Shown here: in pieces, positions 3,198 through 54,333 of the stretch
Position numbering within the stretch: the stretch's first letter is position 1
Layout: every line of letters begins with the position of its first letter
DNA from: a virus
Taxonomy: Duplodnaviria > Caudoviricetes
Reading direction: 5' to 3' (one strand)
IMG/VR virus record: IMGVR_UViG_3300037458_000922
Span: 1-62,732 of that record
DNA: 62,732 nucleotides
Notes under the pieces: generated by a model
What the model saw: the letters and a program-made list of their open reading frames with translations, nothing else
Database searches by the model: none
Told to the model about the DNA's origin: nothing
Position numbers and translations under genes: made by a program

Positions 3198-3926
3198 ATG
3201 CACCCAGAGCAGGAGCAAGAAATCCGCGTTATCGCCGAAGAGATGGACCAGTTGGCTCTTTCTCTTTGCAAACATTACGGCATTGACGAGGATGAGGGGC
3301 TGGATATCGTTCGCGAACTCCCGGGGCTCGTTGGTAAGCTTCAGGATAGAGACTATGCAGGACTTGTCCAAGAGGCTGCCAAACGGATCAGGAGACCGAA
3401 AAACCTTAAATTCGATGCTCCGGACCCCGATGAGAAGTATCCGTTTCATCCGAAGTTTCGGCCTAGGGTGACGACCCCTACTACATTTAACGAGCATTTT
3501 TCCCAAGCAGCGAAGCCTTACATCGTTGCTGTTATGCGCCGTATTGCGAAAGACCGTAATCTCGAAGAGCCTGATGCCAAGACTATTCAGGCTGTTATAG
3601 ATAACATAGACTGGGCCAAAGCGGCGTATGAGGCTCGTAGTCTACCCGAGAACCCTACCAAGCAGCAGCTAAAGCGGGTGATGAAAAAGCTTTGGGCTCC
3701 TGTGGAAAAGGTACTGGATATCGTGCCTTTCGAATGGGCATGGCATGCTCTTCTGGGGACTGCCGTAGCTATCTATTTCTTCAAAATGCTGAAGGGGGCC
3801 TTTGACCCGGACGATAAGGCTAGTGTAATCTATAAGATCATGGATAAGGGCTTTAACGTCTACGCTCGCTACAAGAATAGACAACCTGTAAAACAACAGT
3901 ACAAAGGTTTTCGTAACTGGCGATGA
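3198..3926 (+). CDS. hypothetical protein with C-terminal hydrophobic segment
   Basis: 242-aa ORF, GAGG SD; hydrophobic stretch WAWHALLGTAVAIYFF. Confidence 0.6.
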   Translation: MHPEQEQEIRVIAEEMDQLALSLCKHYGIDEDEGLDIVRELPGLVGKLQDRDYAGLVQEAAKRIRRPKNLKFDAPDPDEKYPFHPKFRPRVTTPTTFNEHFSQAAKPYIVAVMRRIAKDRNLEEPDAKTIQAVIDNIDWAKAAYEARSLPENPTKQQLKRVMKKLWAPVEKVLDIVPFEWAWHALLGTAVAIYFFKMLKGAFDPDDKASVIYKIMDKGFNVYARYKNRQPVKQQYKGFRNWR

Positions 3927-4336
3927 GTCTTCGTAAACAGCGTACCATGCTCAAACTAACTGAGCTGAAGATTTCTCCTGAAATTAGGAAGACATTAGTT
4001 GAAAGTATACTCAACAAACAATCATCTCCACTACGGTTATATGCGTGGGATATAACCTATAAGGATACCGCCCAAGAAGCCTTTTTCACTAAGAATGACG
4101 CGATCAAGGACTGGTATACGGCACAGCGAATATGGGAACAGGAAAGGGAATGCCCAGGGGTTCTCCTATACTCTTGGGAACTCCCCCCTGCTGAATTAAC
4201 GAAGTATATCCAGAACGGAAAAGTGGCCAAAATTCCCCTCAGTGAGAACTGCCAAAAAGAGATCGTTACCCCACCTAAAAACTTCCACCAAGACATGCAG
4301 CAAACGGTGAAACCACGAAGCCTGAAAAAGCAGTAG
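3923..4336 (+). CDS. hypothetical protein
   Basis: ATGA overlap with the upstream gene; 137 aa. Confidence 0.55.
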   Translation: MSLRKQRTMLKLTELKISPEIRKTLVESILNKQSSPLRLYAWDITYKDTAQEAFFTKNDAIKDWYTAQRIWEQERECPGVLLYSWELPPAELTKYIQNGKVAKIPLSENCQKEIVTPPKNFHQDMQQTVKPRSLKKQ

Positions 4337-47953: not shown

Positions 47954-48060
47954 GATTTATTATGGGACTGCGCACACTGCGCGAGTGGGGAGTCCTAGAA
48001 ACCAAAGGAGACAAATCGTTATGAGTCTTTCAATAACTATAGCCCTTGGTCTATCTGCTC

Positions 48061-49290
48061 ATGAGTAATCAAAAAATAACTAGAGAGGTTTCGGAGGACG
48101 GCACCATCTCGGTCAGCGTCACTCCTATCGTTAAAAAAGAGATCACGGCGCGTTGGGTGGACTCTGAGGGGGTTCGGCACTATGGGCACACTACAGAAAA
48201 AGAACTTCGTGCGCTGGCCGATATTCCTGATAATTACGTGTGCGTTAGTATCCGCCCTAATACCTGGGCGGCTATGGACAGCATCGGCCCTTTCATATGT
48301 CATCAGATCCGGGGCTTATTCATACCCCCAGATCCTCGACTTACATCCCTGGAGAATCTGCTAGAGCTTATCTCCGGGGCCTCCCCGAAAGTTCCCTACC
48401 TGTTTTCAAATCGTCCTCCTGCTCCAGACAACGAGCGCCGAATGTTAGAGCTTTCTGTTGCAGACCCTCACCTGGGAATGCTCTGTTATGCCCCACACGC
48501 AGACTTGGACTATGATTTAGAGACTGCCGAGAAGACATATCTGTGGGCGATAGAGAATCTCCTCCATAATGGGTTGATGTATGGCCCGGTCGAGAAGATC
48601 CTGTTCCCGATTGGGAACGACTATTTGCACGCGGCCCCCACTCCTTCGGCAGGGAAGGGAAATAACTACACCACTACCAGCGGTGTTGCTCAGCCCGAAA
48701 TGACGGATTGGCACCATGCCTATGAGCGTGGTGAACGTCTTTTGATCCAGGCCATTGACATGCTGAAGTCGGTTGCTCCTGTAGTGGTTCTCGAAGTCTC
48801 GGGAAACCACGATACGTATACCTCCTTTACCATGGCCAGGGTTATGAGGGCGTATTATCATAATGACCGTAATGTCACTGTAGACGCTTCCCCAAACCCC
48901 TACAAGTTCGTTCACTATGGGTGTAACCTGATTGGGTTCAAACACGACGCCAAACCTAACCAGCAGGTACGTCTGGCGGCTCTCATGGCCAACGAGTGTG
49001 CTGCCGCTTGGGCGGCAACTGATAATGGCTACCGGGAGTGGCATATTGCTGACCAACACCGTAAGGGCGTTGGGAGCATCGTGGCAATGGAGGAACAGGG
49101 CGTTTCAGTTGAATTCCTCCCGAGTATTGTCTCCCCCAATGGATGGCACCGGGAGATGACCTTTAACCACCAGAAGCGCGGGGCCATGGGTTGGGTATGG
49201 AACTATGCGACCGGCCCTGAGGCGAGAATCCAGGTCAACCTAGCGCGAAAGAAGACCCTTCAGCAGATGGGCGGAGCCTGTATCCCTTAA
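48061..49290 (+). CDS. calcineurin-like metallophosphoesterase
   Basis: Motifs ADPHLG, GNDYLH, SGNHD, FKHD, HIADQH in canonical order. Confidence 0.8.
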   Translation: MSNQKITREVSEDGTISVSVTPIVKKEITARWVDSEGVRHYGHTTEKELRALADIPDNYVCVSIRPNTWAAMDSIGPFICHQIRGLFIPPDPRLTSLENLLELISGASPKVPYLFSNRPPAPDNERRMLELSVADPHLGMLCYAPHADLDYDLETAEKTYLWAIENLLHNGLMYGPVEKILFPIGNDYLHAAPTPSAGKGNNYTTTSGVAQPEMTDWHHAYERGERLLIQAIDMLKSVAPVVVLEVSGNHDTYTSFTMARVMRAYYHNDRNVTVDASPNPYKFVHYGCNLIGFKHDAKPNQQVRLAALMANECAAAWAATDNGYREWHIADQHRKGVGSIVAMEEQGVSVEFLPSIVSPNGWHREMTFNHQKRGAMGWVWNYATGPEARIQVNLARKKTLQQMGGACIP

Positions 49291-49813: not shown

Positions 49814-50137
49814 ATGGCTATTGGATGGGTTTCAGTTGTGTCGTTCGCCTGGCAGTACGTTATTCCAGCCCTTAAGGACTGTGCAGACGTGCTGATGAAG
49901 GGCACCTATGGTTATGTCAAGGACCGCGTGGATGACGTTGATGTCCTGGAAGAAAAGGGCCTGGGTAAGAGAACCCTGGTCTATGACGGGGCGCTGGAGT
50001 TCCTTGAGGAGAAGGGAATTGACACCAGCACAGTCTCATCGGCGCTTATCTATCTCCTGATCGAGATCGCAGTCGTCAATCTGAAGAAGCGGAAGAACAA
50101 GCTCCGGAAGCCTGCGAAGACTTCGATTTCGTCCTGA
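49814..50137 (+). CDS. hypothetical protein
   Basis: AAGGAG SD before ATG 49814. Confidence 0.6.
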   Translation: MAIGWVSVVSFAWQYVIPALKDCADVLMKGTYGYVKDRVDDVDVLEEKGLGKRTLVYDGALEFLEEKGIDTSTVSSALIYLLIEIAVVNLKKRKNKLRKPAKTSISS

Positions 50138-50150
50138 AATACTGATAGGG

Positions 50151-50179
50151 TTGACCTTTTTATCCTACTCCTCTATATT
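50151..50179 (+). promoter_or_regulatory. sigma70-like promoter for the HU gene
   Basis: TTGACC-N17-TATATT. Confidence 0.65.
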
Positions 50180-50218
50180 TCAGAGGTGTCGCAGGTGTTT
50201 GTGTAGTCTGGAGGCGAA

Positions 50219-50563
50219 ATGAACACATCTAAATTACGTGAATACGTATACAAGAAGGCGCTGAAATCGTTTAGTACACCCTTGACCCAGGAGGACACCT
50301 CGGCCTTCCTGGACACCGTAATAGACGCTATTATGCAGGGACTAGTGGGAGAAGAGAGCGAGGATATCGAAGCCCCTGGGAAGGTAATGCTGCGGTCCTT
50401 CGGGACCTTCACGGTTATTACCCGTAAGGGCAGAACGTATAGTGTCCGGGGTAAGCAGGTGACTGTCCCAGACCGGAAGACCGTAGTCTTTAAACCGGGG
50501 ACTGATCTTGCCCGAGCCCTGGCTAAGTTAAACGGCCAAGAAAAAATTGACGATACCCCTTGA
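50219..50563 (+). CDS. HU/IHF-family DNA-binding protein
   Basis: V.LR.FGTF.V..RKGR......G..V.VP.RK.V.FKPG..L. Confidence 0.9.
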   Translation: MNTSKLREYVYKKALKSFSTPLTQEDTSAFLDTVIDAIMQGLVGEESEDIEAPGKVMLRSFGTFTVITRKGRTYSVRGKQVTVPDRKTVVFKPGTDLARALAKLNGQEKIDDTP

Positions 50564-50588
50564 CAAGTGCATTCGGAGGGTATATCTT
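50560..50588 (+). promoter_or_regulatory. sigma70-like promoter
   Basis: TTGACA-N17-TATCTT. Confidence 0.75.
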
Positions 50589-50594
50589 ACGGGG

Positions 50595-50699
50595 TAGTTA
50601 GGTAGAGGGTTCTCTTTGGTGGTACTCAGGGACTCTTTACCACTAATCTCCTCTCGAAGGGCCACGATCCCCCCCAATTGTCGTGGCCCTTCCTTTTTT
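50595..50699 (+). ncRNA. candidate ~105-nt small RNA
   Basis: Lies between a consensus promoter and a strong terminator, no ORF; 5' hairpin, CUCCUCUC linker, terminator hairpin with C7 loop. Confidence 0.55.
50656..50699 (+). terminator. intrinsic terminator
   Basis: GAAGGGCCACGA...TCGTGGCCCTTC stem followed by CTTTTTT. Confidence 0.85.
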
Positions 50700-50708
50700 G
50701 TCTACCCC

Positions 50709-50737
50709 TTGACAAATGAGCTAACCGGGATTATGCT
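50709..50737 (+). promoter_or_regulatory. sigma70-like promoter (near-leaderless mRNA)
   Basis: TTGACA-N17-TATGCT, with ATG 10 nt downstream. Confidence 0.75.
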
Positions 50738-50746
50738 GATAATATC

Positions 50747-51322
50747 ATGAAGTTCAAACGCTCTTCCGCTGGAACGATAGTGCGTACCGGGAGGGTTGAG
50801 CCCCCCAGGTACAGCGGTTATAAACCAGGCGACCCGGTCTCTATCGGAGTAGGGAAGGACAAGTGCCAGTTCCTTACCCCTTTCCCACAGGAGATAGAGC
50901 AAGCTCTCACAGTCCGGTATCCCGGGTATTTTTTCTCCCCACAGTATAAGTCTGGATCGTGGGACGGGAAGAAGCATTTCATAACCCGGAATGGAGTATT
51001 CCCTACGGGGCTACTACCTTTCGTCTACCACATCTTGACTACCGGGTTCATGCCTACACTAAACAGCACTAAAAAGCGGGAAAAGGTGTTAGGTACTTCA
51101 TCGAAAAACGTATCCCTAAAAGTGGATAAAGACTTCGAAAATGACTTCTATCCAGGGGTCTTAAATTCGATGGAAAATGTGGGTCTATTAGAAAGCTTAA
51201 ATACCGACACTGGAATTTTCGCATATCCAACTAAACAGCTTGTTTTGTGGAAGAAAATACAAGATAAAAATCCCCTTGCTAAATCTATTCTAAATCTATG
51301 TCGCTCACTCCTCTCTTCTTGA
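50747..51322 (+). CDS. stand-alone N-terminal domain of a UvsW-like SF2 helicase
   Basis: PGYFFSPQYKSGSWDGKKHF....FPTGLL matches the UvsW N-terminal signature. Confidence 0.75.
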   Translation: MKFKRSSAGTIVRTGRVEPPRYSGYKPGDPVSIGVGKDKCQFLTPFPQEIEQALTVRYPGYFFSPQYKSGSWDGKKHFITRNGVFPTGLLPFVYHILTTGFMPTLNSTKKREKVLGTSSKNVSLKVDKDFENDFYPGVLNSMENVGLLESLNTDTGIFAYPTKQLVLWKKIQDKNPLAKSILNLCRSLLSS

Positions 51323-51868
51323 TACTATTCCAGCTAGAATAATAGATCAATTTGAACCCCCGGGAGGGGGTTCAACCACAAAAGCCAAAGACCTACCCTC
51401 CCCGTCAGGGGAGGGTTCTTTGGCTTTGAGGAATCGCAGAAGACTAAGAGAGACGCCCTCCCCCGTAAGGGGGAGAAGGCTCTCGCATGTCTTCGAGAAA
51501 AGGTGTAGCTAGTCAAGCCAACCCTTCCAGAAAAATGCTTTTGGCTAGTCTCATTTAGGGGTATCTCAGTCTCAATTTCCGTGAAATTTGGCTTGGGGAA
51601 GGGGGGATACGAAAATTTTAATTTACGAACGAAGAGAGTAAATTATAAATTTTGGGGGTAGGGGTTATAGATAGGGGGGGTGTCTTATATATATAGTCTA
51701 GTATTGCGTGGGGGGGAAAGAGTTGAGACCAGGTCACCCCTATAAGGACATTGCCCATTTTTCGGTTCGGCAACTTCTTTGTTATCAGCTACTTAATTTT
51801 TTGGCCTCGGTCTCATTTTCTCACCCTCGTGTCTCAGGTAGCCGGGAAAAAAATTTTGGTTCGGGGGC
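51323..51868. other. structured non-coding region, candidate replication origin
   Basis: Three GNNA-loop hairpins, AT-rich palindrome, G-tracts, TA run, repeated GTCTCA; inside the replication module. Confidence 0.5.
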
Positions 51869-51897
51869 TTGACAAGAGACCAGCCCTCGCATATCTT
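51869..51897 (+). promoter_or_regulatory. sigma70-like promoter
   Basis: TTGACA-N17-TATCTT upstream of ATG 51946. Confidence 0.75.
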
Positions 51898-51945
51898 GGT
51901 TCTCCCCTGAGAGACCTCCGGGGGGAAAGGAACAGGAACTCGCCC

Positions 51946-53235
51946 ATGAGTACCACCCAACTCCAAATCACTTCCTGGCAGCAAGTAGCAGATCACTTCC
52001 CAGGACTTCAACATCTGGCTAATTTGGAGAAAACAGGGAAGTTAGAGTTTCGATCTTACCAAGCACTGGCAGTCATGTCGGTGCTTTTTTCAGGTTTTGG
52101 GGGGGTTATTCGTTCTGCCACGGGAAGTGGTAAAACCCTGATAGCAGCCGCTATTTGTGGGGCCTTCCTCCCTAAGACTTCAGTGGTCCTGACCTCGGGA
52201 CGTGCTCTCGTGGAGCAAACGTATAATGAGTTCGTAACTCTTCTAGGTAAAGATGTTGTGGGTTACATTACGACCGAAGGTTTTTGCCCGAAGGAGGTAA
52301 CCGTTGCGTCCATCGACACCCTCTCTTTCTACACCGGGACCGTGCCAAAGCGGCGGGGAGTCCCGGTCATGGACCCAAAAAAGTTCAACGAAAAAAAGAA
52401 AATCTTCCTCGATTACCTAGCTAACAACGTACAAATGCTAGTATTTGACGAGTGTCACCATTCTTCCGCAGATAGTTACCAGGACATTGGAAAGTACTCG
52501 AAAGCACCGCATCGTGTTGGTTTAAGTGGAACTCCTCTCAAGCAAGACGAATTAAGTGACATGCTTCTTCTCAGTCTCGTGGGGCCGATCACGTTCGACC
52601 TGAACGCTCGGTGGCTGCAGGACAAAAAGTATCTCGCAAAAGCAAGACTCGAAATTCGCGAACTAGATTACACGTCAAACGTAACAAGAAAGTATTCGTA
52701 CAACGACGCAAGAACAAATCTTTTAATCAAAAATCAAGATAGAACTGTACACATTGCAAGTGACATTGCAAAAGCCTTAGAAGAACCGGAAACACGTTTA
52801 TTAGTTTTAACTGGAAATTCCGTAGAACTCGCAGAGTCTCTCGCAGAAGAACTAGATGCATTAACTAAGCCCCTTCAGAAGCGTTTAGGCTTCCGGCCTT
52901 TCGCTCTTGCAACGGGGAAGATGAATTCCAAACAAGTAACACGAGCGTTCAACCAACTTCGGCGAGGAGATCTTCAGTGTGTCATCACCACGAAGATCGC
53001 TGATGAGGGGATTGATGTTCCGGACGTTAATACCCTCTTCCTCGTCGGGGGCGGGAAGGCGTATGTGGCTGCCGTGCAACGAATCGGACGTGGTCTCCGA
53101 AAGAAGAAGGGCAACCAGGAGCTGTGGGTTGTTGATTACTTCACGCTCGGAAACAAGTATGTCGAAAAGCATGACAGGCAGCGCCTAAAGACTTACGAGG
53201 AGGAAGATTTCTTTTATGAAATCACTCGGGTATAA
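51946..53235 (+). CDS. uvsW: UvsW-like superfamily 2 helicase core
   Basis: RSYQ, ATGSGKT, DECHH, GLSGTP, EGIDVP, QRIGRGLR. Confidence 0.9.
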   Translation: MSTTQLQITSWQQVADHFPGLQHLANLEKTGKLEFRSYQALAVMSVLFSGFGGVIRSATGSGKTLIAAAICGAFLPKTSVVLTSGRALVEQTYNEFVTLLGKDVVGYITTEGFCPKEVTVASIDTLSFYTGTVPKRRGVPVMDPKKFNEKKKIFLDYLANNVQMLVFDECHHSSADSYQDIGKYSKAPHRVGLSGTPLKQDELSDMLLLSLVGPITFDLNARWLQDKKYLAKARLEIRELDYTSNVTRKYSYNDARTNLLIKNQDRTVHIASDIAKALEEPETRLLVLTGNSVELAESLAEELDALTKPLQKRLGFRPFALATGKMNSKQVTRAFNQLRRGDLQCVITTKIADEGIDVPDVNTLFLVGGGKAYVAAVQRIGRGLRKKKGNQELWVVDYFTLGNKYVEKHDRQRLKTYEEEDFFYEITRV

Positions 53236-53238
53236 GTC

Positions 53239-54324
53239 ATGTACGGGGGTTATGATTTCCCGCCGTGGGCATACGGGGAAGACGCCGAAGACTACACCTT
53301 TTGTGAGAGCAGCCTAGAGTGTTTCGTGCTGCGGATGCTGAAAACCTACTGTTCTCTCGTCCGCCAGCGTTACTCGGCTTCCCTCCCTTCAAAACGAACT
53401 ACTCTGGTCCCGGGAGCCACGGACTTTCGGAAGACTCCTTACTACGAGGCTTTCTGCGAGATCGCAGGAAAACTCCAGGAGGCGGGAGTAGAGGACCCCG
53501 AGGATTTCATCGTTTACCTCTTCGAGCGTTGGTTGGTCGAGGGGAAACACGACAAGTACCTTGGGGTGTCTTTCTCCCGTCGTGGGGAGAAGGTAGAGGC
53601 GTCTTCTTCCTCGGGGTATGGCTACCCGAGTCTCCGCTTCATCCAGGAAGAGGGCGAAGAGTTTCTGGCTGACTTCCTATCGGTGTTGTCCCGAGGGTAC
53701 CGCCCCAAGTATTTTATTACTCAGGGTAACCTAGAAGAGCTTTCCTCCGGGAAGATTCTCGACGAGAAGGTAGCCCAATGGGCCGCTTTGATGGAATCCA
53801 CCGAAGAGGAATACTGGCGTAGAGGGATGCACTGGCACTATCCGTATCTCACCTATAACGCGGCTAAAGGCTCCAAGTCTCTCCAGAGGTGCATTCATGT
53901 GATCCGGGATGTCCTAGTGGAGCAGGGGTGCTCGGCGTTGCAGGACGTATCCTTAGAGGAGGTTTATGAGGGATTTTTGACCACTATCAGCTTGGCTGAG
54001 AAGGCATCTGCAGAGGAGACGCGAAAGAGTGTAGCCCGCTATGAGGCTGCCCGTAGAGCCGGGCAGCCCCCGGAATATCAAAATCTTCGTGTCCTCGATC
54101 CCGACTATGAGTTACTATCAGAGGTGGATCGAGAACGAGTACTGGCATACCGAGATGCCGTCCTCCGTGGTGTGGACGTTACCGCGCCCAGGGTACAGCG
54201 GGAAATTGAGGATCGGGTGAACCCTGTTGACACAGAGCACCCTGATACAATTCTCCACGCCTTGTACGGGGTTGGTTGTCCGAGGAGAGTGGACGGGTCT
54301 CGTGTTGATGTAATTGAATCCTAG
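53239..54324 (+). CDS. hypothetical protein in the replication operon
   Basis: 361-aa ORF between the SF2 helicase and DnaB. Confidence 0.65.
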   Translation: MYGGYDFPPWAYGEDAEDYTFCESSLECFVLRMLKTYCSLVRQRYSASLPSKRTTLVPGATDFRKTPYYEAFCEIAGKLQEAGVEDPEDFIVYLFERWLVEGKHDKYLGVSFSRRGEKVEASSSSGYGYPSLRFIQEEGEEFLADFLSVLSRGYRPKYFITQGNLEELSSGKILDEKVAQWAALMESTEEEYWRRGMHWHYPYLTYNAAKGSKSLQRCIHVIRDVLVEQGCSALQDVSLEEVYEGFLTTISLAEKASAEETRKSVARYEAARRAGQPPEYQNLRVLDPDYELLSEVDRERVLAYRDAVLRGVDVTAPRVQREIEDRVNPVDTEHPDTILHALYGVGCPRRVDGSRVDVIES

Positions 54325-54333
54325 GGGGGATAA

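Follow-up and report, generated by a model that had tools for sequence, protein, structure and literature searches.

To our knowledge, targets are known for only a few small RNAs of lytic or large phages. The c4 RNA of phages P1 and P7 (immI) is processed from the operon transcript that also carries its target. Its action is described in PMC12197685 as loop pairing that blocks translation at the ribosome-binding region of the downstream message. According to PMC6486639, the mycobacterial 6C RNA uses its C-rich loops to repress panD and dnaB at G-rich sites, and PMC4485353 reports that RNAII of plasmid pMV158, a small RNA ended by a terminator, inhibits translation of the replication gene repB at its initiation region. 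Plasmid counter-transcripts are cis-antisense RNAs, made from the opposite strand and fully complementary. Early messages of phage T4 are inactivated by the nuclease RegB, which acts at GGAG within the Shine-Dalgarno site. T4 is also described as withholding UvsW until late, after which UvsW unwinds origin R-loops (PMC3016281).

The locus considered here lies in a 62,732-base IMG/VR virus record (CheckV completeness 45%), the whole of which was analysed and is called the window. Nearly all of its genes are on the + strand, and no tRNA genes were found in the 62.7 kb. Between an HU gene and a gene for a UvsW_N domain, it carries a predicted small RNA with a candidate partner 1.25 kb downstream on the same strand, at the start of a gene for a UvsW-like helicase core. 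The features needed below are the following.

50219-50563, + strand: HU gene (PF00216, E = 3e-12)
50560-50588, + strand: P1, small RNA promoter, TTGACA-N17-TATCTT (pattern match; conserved in 9/9 versions)
50595-50699, + strand: predicted small RNA, about 105 nt (fold, with promoter and terminator positions)
50595-50645, + strand: 5′ hairpin (fold)
50618-50631, + strand: segment GGUGGUACUCAGGG of the apical loop, complementary to the region around the helicase start (complementarity scan)
50646-50655, + strand: single-stranded linker AUCUCCUCUC, anti-Shine-Dalgarno-like, containing CUCCUCUC (fold)
50656-50692, + strand: terminator hairpin (fold; compensatory stem changes among relatives)
50693-50699, + strand: tail, C plus U6 (sequence)
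50709-50737, + strand: P2, promoter of the UvsW_N gene, TTGACA-N17-TATGCT (pattern match)
50747-51322, + strand: UvsW_N gene, 191 aa (PF21241, 25.7 bits against a cutoff of 25.3)
51869-51897, + strand: P3, promoter of the helicase gene, TTGACA-N17-TATCTT (pattern match)
51943-51957, + strand: predicted target site CCCAUGAGUACCACC, covering the helicase start codon, the next three codons and two bases of the fifth
51946-53235, + strand: UvsW-like helicase core gene (ResIII and Helicase_C domain matches), candidate target
54324-54331, + strand: possible second target of the C7 loop, GGGGGGAU, at the ribosome-binding site of a DnaB-like gene (rank 5/57; low-complexity)

The predicted small RNA is bounded by a consensus promoter and a terminator. 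P1 is formed by TTGACA at 50560-50565, a 17-nt spacer and TATCTT at 50583-50588, with its −35 element overlapping the TGA stop codon of the HU gene, and P2 begins 10 nt after the U6 tail. Four consensus sigma-70-type promoters with 17-nt spacers cluster here (50151, 50560, 50709 and 51869). The pattern TTGACA-N17-TATNNT occurs three times in the 62.7 kb, always on the + strand (50560, 50709 and 51869), where 0.07 would be expected and where none of 100 shuffles contained at least three. The RNA start was placed at the seventh base after the −10 element and its end at the last U of the tail. This 105-nt RNA has a minimum free energy of −43.2 kcal/mol (z = −5.17), which none of 200 shuffles matched. 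In its 5′ hairpin, 50601-50612 pairs with 50630-50641 in a 12-pair stem with three G-U pairs, extended by 50595-98 with 50642-45. The terminator stem (50656-50668 with 50680-50692) has 13 pairs, one of them U-G and 12 perfect, and closes an 11-nt loop, CCCCCCCAAUU (50669-50679), that holds the C7 run. This terminator is absent from our automated terminator scan because the scan permits only loops of 8 nt or fewer. A first-pass annotation, made from the letters of the window, had described a promoter, 5′ hairpin, linker, C7-loop terminator, T6 tail and following promoter, and all of these are present. It had also held that the transcript encodes nothing else, and this stands: on the + strand the RNA overlaps a single ORF, a 44-aa TTG frame crossing the terminator and the next promoter, and no ORF shared among nine versions of the RNA was found, on which ground a small-peptide reading was rejected. 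In wetland metatranscriptomes (four runs, contigs only, from libraries ill-suited to small RNAs), contigs match pieces of the neighbouring genes at 100% identity and none covers 50611-50711, which counts neither for nor against expression.

The unit recurs in relatives. Comparison of 50100-51400 with cultured phages by blastn gave no match, tblastn of the helicase and of its 414-aa neighbour against cultured phages returned only matches below 32% identity, and a scan of bacterial and archaeal genome contigs with the UvsW_N alignment gave no relative. Relatives were instead found among viral and metagenome contigs by protein-guided scans with HU, helicase and UvsW_N alignments; a second helicase-alignment scan of viral contigs added no further close relative. 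Merging of copies (L014 = L017 = L022; L023 = L024; L012 and L026, 97% alike) left nine distinct versions, namely the window, L021, L012, L023, L013, L014, L027, L028 and L043. L025, in which the upstream DNA is absent, was left out of the count, as were the remote L018-L020 and L083 (22-25% helicase identity) and partial matches to the UvsW_N core. In all nine versions the order is P1, 83-143 nt of non-coding RNA, a GC-rich terminator, P2 and the UvsW_N gene. The phages that keep this unit are uncultured, come from wetlands and have genomes of roughly 200 kb. P1 has a perfect TTGACA, a 16-17 nt spacer of unrelated sequence and a −10 element in the same place throughout. The unit is kept in L014, L023/24, L027 and L043, where a separate terminator ends HU ahead of P1, and also in L012, where a 132-aa ORF intervenes between HU and the unit; this argues that the unit is not merely the 3′ UTR of HU with an unconserved hairpin, the possibility that the first-pass annotation had named as fatal to its proposal.

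The nine RNAs are too divergent for a single MAFFT alignment. All of them fold better than shuffles (z −2.5 to −6.4) and all have 5′ hairpins. The linker contains CUCC or CCUC in 8/9 versions (not L014), where 10-14-nt windows of this strand do so at a base rate of 5-8%. Large C/U-rich terminator loops of 9-15 nt occur in six of the nine; those of L027, L028 and L043 are small and not C-rich. Compensatory changes, which the earlier annotation had suggested looking for, are present: RNAalifold on two subgroups finds double changes in 9/17 and 6/12 pairs, and the 14-nt terminator loop of L012 is identical to that of L023, whereas their stems differ on both sides at 4 of 11 pairs. This conservation of loop and linker while the stems drift indicates selection on the loop and linker sequences and not on termination alone. 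Taken together, the comparative evidence makes it very probable that a conserved, stand-alone small RNA gene exists here.

This RNA reaches no Rfam family. Judged from its sequence, it is probably one of the known kind of trans-encoded base-pairing RNAs. The Rfam search that the first-pass annotation had proposed returned no match in the window at the gathering score. The 6C model (RF01066) scored 28.1 bits against a gathering score of 47, from the terminator hairpin of the window alone, and matched 0/8 of the relatives' RNAs; in E-value mode, no Rfam row fell on any of these eight. Yfr1 (RF01116), in which two hairpins flank a single-stranded CUCC-containing motif, did not match the nine RNAs, its only row (20.8 bits) lying on the other strand elsewhere in L043. 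For c4-type RNA there was no Rfam match at the gathering score in the window and no row in the E-value lists, and no description of this small RNA family was found in the main texts of the literature searched. The 6C RNA of Actinobacteria is similar in its long GC stem, which closes a UCCCCCCC-type loop. It has two C-rich hairpin loops, whereas here the C-run is confined to the terminator loop and the best-supported recognition element is the G/U-rich loop of the 5′ hairpin. As a functional analogue, the c4 RNA of P1 and P7 comes closest, likewise a phage RNA upstream of its target on the same strand. In contrast to c4, the RNA described here comes with a promoter and a terminator of its own, it is separated from its putative target by one terminator and two promoters, and the target message, which has its own promoter 1.25 kb away, encodes a helicase and not an antirepressor. 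It differs from plasmid counter-transcripts in being trans-encoded on the same strand, with complementarity of 11-16 nt. T4 UvsW control and RegB resemble it only by analogy, in a shared proposed aim, the timing of replication-gene expression; the means in T4 are a late promoter and a protein nuclease, whereas here the helicase promoter is of early type and an RNA would do the timing.

The link to the helicase came from a k-mer scan of the 62.7 kb for perfect + strand complements of the RNA, which yielded four 11-mers against an expectation of 1.4. One of them pairs 51947-51957, on the start codon of the helicase gene (ATG 51946 by alignment with relatives), with apical-loop positions 50618-50628 of the 5′ hairpin; a sequence search confirmed this match, which a repeat search had not listed. 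Extended to 14 pairs, with a single A bulged out, the duplex has a hybrid energy of −26.1 kcal/mol and spans −3 to +11 of the helicase gene. With correction for accessibility it scores −12.9 and ranks first among 57 gene starts in the window. A hybrid-only scan across all 62.7 kb, a less selective method, places its sites of rank 1 and rank 4 in the helicase 5′ region (51904 and 51942). The energy model was an in-house substitute for IntaRNA, and ranks are among each phage's own gene starts. Since the match in the window was found post hoc, after six other comparisons of own with swapped RNA-target pairs, it was tested in other phages.

Strong complementarity to the helicase is present in three of the seven phages with helicase sequence: the window, L014 and L012. 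L014 has a different 11-nt perfect match, to helicase codons 3-6 (+8 to +22; hybrid −24.3, corrected −17.3), which ranks 1/77 among gene starts in 80 kb after accessibility correction and only 8th in the hybrid-only scan of those 80 kb; its pairing segment is a 16-nt apical loop in the centroid fold. The window and L014 sites are homologous, with a common UGGUAC/GUACCA core and flanks changed on both partners. In L012 the first hairpin pairs with helicase +1 to +18 (16 pairs, a 2-nt bulge, −26.5), and the site ranks only 13/56 after accessibility correction because both partners are hairpins; cofolding adds pairing of the linker to the helicase Shine-Dalgarno sequence. The best helicase match of L013 is an 8-nt linker match on the Shine-Dalgarno sequence (rank 3/31) and that of L028 is 7 nt at the level of the Shine-Dalgarno sequence, matches that any anti-Shine-Dalgarno motif would give. 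The L023 match is weak, and L043 has no helicase match of note (rank 17/61). When RNAs and helicase starts were exchanged among phages, 6/720 permutations were as good as own pairs for hairpin-1 loops (six phages), 31/5040 for the 5′ module against helicase −6 to +32 (seven phages; own mean −22.1), and 39/5040 for cofold ddG (seven phages; own −10.1, swapped −6.4), three tests that overlap and are not independent. The first-pass annotation had treated the 5′ hairpin as plain structure and drawn attention to the C7 loop; the apical loop of that hairpin is instead the best-supported recognition element. Its idea of antisense control over a replication function was roughly right with a different target, the helicase start in place of downstream G-tracts. 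In the accessibility-corrected ranking given above, a target prediction of the sort that it had suggested, the helicase start is on top and the DnaB-like site of the C7 loop fifth.

On balance, we lean towards a trans-acting regulatory small RNA that pairs with the initiation region of the UvsW-like helicase. Host RNA polymerase would transcribe the RNA from the consensus sigma-70-type early promoter P1, and its own intrinsic terminator would end it at about 105 nt. The apical loop of the 5′ hairpin would then base-pair with the helicase translation initiation region on a message initiated at another early promoter, the third, which lies 1.25 kb farther along this strand; further contacts, to the Shine-Dalgarno sequence or a G-rich leader, would come from the CUCC linker and in certain relatives from the C/U-rich loop of the terminator. 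Since the predicted duplex covers the helicase start codon, it would keep the 30S subunit off, and helicase synthesis would be lowered or delayed. Sequence and comparison establish the unit with its conservation and fold, and the complementarity; transcription of the small RNA, the repressive direction and its purpose are parts of this explanation that we infer. The candidate brings with it a concrete partner in the form of two short complementary segments, and suggests that target prediction for phage small RNAs is feasible from covariation across metagenomic relatives alone. If confirmed, the pairing would represent RNA-level control of a replication and recombination helicase in phages and offer a handle on how these ~200-kb phages time replication.

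Other explanations account for part of these observations. The linker and C-rich loop might belong to a general anti-Shine-Dalgarno RNA that binds many phage and host ribosome-binding sites, its helicase match being incidental, which we regard as unlikely though well worth considering. The frequency of CUCC/CCUC in the linkers, far above the base rate, and the C/U-rich terminator loops of most versions are what such an RNA would have, many genes of the phage use GGAGG-type sites, and the top predicted target in L012 is a GAGGAGGAGG site paired to the terminator loop. The C7 loop also matches GGGGGGAU at the DnaB-like gene, a site that recalls 6C RNA acting on dnaB through C-rich loops at G-rich sequences, as PMC6486639 describes; this match carries no weight because the same 8-mer occurs six times in the window. 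Motifs this short confer no specificity on a strand with 34 runs of at least six G and 108 copies of GGAGG, L014 lacks the CUCC linker, and L027, L028 and L043 lack the C-rich loop. The first-pass annotation had called the linker anti-Shine-Dalgarno, and its recurrence in eight of nine versions agrees with that description, yet the adjacent strong GGAGG of HU shows no preference for its own partner as a target (99/120 and 117/120 permutations as good). A general anti-Shine-Dalgarno function would also leave the long hairpin-1 matches unexplained. A direct role of the linker at the helicase site (21/720) was dropped, its duplexes being heterogeneous and one lying in an untranscribed promoter spacer, and the UvsW_N message was rejected as a target of hairpin 1 (140/720 permutations as good).

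It is also conceivable, and in our judgement improbable, that the locus is transcriptional punctuation with no function in trans, its terminator ending HU and upstream read-through transcription and insulating P2, with P1 a further early promoter of the cluster whose short product is a by-product. The clustering of four N17 promoters fits such an arrangement, as does the lack, in four versions (the window, L013, L021 and L028), of any terminator after HU other than that of the RNA. What speaks against it is that P1 and a second terminator are kept where HU has a terminator of its own, that loop sequence is conserved while stems drift and the linker motif is conserved too, and that own-pair complementarity to the helicase start is significant in the two seven-phage tests. 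Finally, the first-pass annotation had proposed that the C7 loop pairs with G-tracts near 51601. An RNA that primes or controls replication, as RNA or at the DNA, through a conserved G-run/AT-rich/G-run module between UvsW_N and helicase (51596-51722) would use that contact, and the pyrimidine-rich loops of the RNAs would suit it; this we consider very improbable indeed. The pairing with G-tracts did not hold up, as 682/720 permutations were as good as own pairs for the C7 loop and 154/720 for the linker, so that neither shows an own-pair preference, and the matches are of low complexity, GGGGGGAT occurring six times in the window.

Pairing with the helicase start admits a more specific reading by analogy with T4, which is speculative and which we think improbable, namely that the small RNA is a timer of replication mode that holds back the R-loop-unwinding helicase core despite its early-type promoter. 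An origin-like module between UvsW_N and the helicase core, consisting of G-runs on the non-template strand that flank an AT-rich stretch, would favour R-loop-primed initiation, and the helicase would appear only as the small RNA is outrun. If true, this would be the RNA equivalent of the late-promoter control of UvsW in T4 and a counterpart of its switch from origin-dependent to recombination-dependent replication.

The module at 51596-51722 lies just upstream of the helicase promoter and could be a replication origin or unwinding element. Runs of 6-7 G flank a stretch of about 25 nt that is AT-rich (TATATATAG) and are followed by a GAAACCAUWAGG-like box, an arrangement conserved in all relatives reaching it (L013 ~4113-4165; L014 ~3268-3320). 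Non-coding DNA of 200-620 nt separates UvsW_N from the helicase core in every such relative. Directly 3′ of the UvsW_N stop codon, at 51352-51480, the window has three strong nested hairpins rich in CCCUCCCC/GGGGAGGG, two of which score as terminator-like in the terminator scan.

The UvsW homologue itself is split into a gene for the N-domain and one for the helicase core, each with its own consensus promoter, an arrangement common to the window, L012, L013, L014, L023, L028 and L043. Matches to the helicase core at about 27% identity include cyanophage genes annotated 'RNA-DNA + DNA-DNA helicase', and a DnaB-like helicase (ATG 54334) and a primase are encoded farther downstream. In the window, the −10 element of P2 ends 9 nt before the UvsW_N ATG at 50747, and across the nine versions this distance is 6 or 9 nt, in every case with no Shine-Dalgarno sequence; the UvsW_N message therefore appears leaderless or nearly so, whereas GGAGG-type sites serve many of the phage's other genes. 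More distant is L029 (39% UvsW_N identity), which lacks the small RNA unit: at 900-1040 a single terminator and a single promoter come after HU, and the leader of the gene that follows contains AAAGGAG, a Shine-Dalgarno-like sequence. L027 (1571-1581) and L043 (2335-2345) share an identical G/U-rich apical loop, UUAGGUGUUGU, on stems changed on both sides, and this sub-lineage may have another target because its best predicted one is not the helicase. A 10-nt string, CCUGAGAGAC, appears in the same sense in the helicase leader of the window (51909-51918) and in the small RNA linker of L012 (3884-3893), which may be chance. Upstream, a 414-aa protein (48046-49290 in the window) with no Pfam match is conserved beside HU in all relatives, and phage genes related to it, at about 25-32% identity, carry the annotation DNA repair exonuclease or phosphoesterase.
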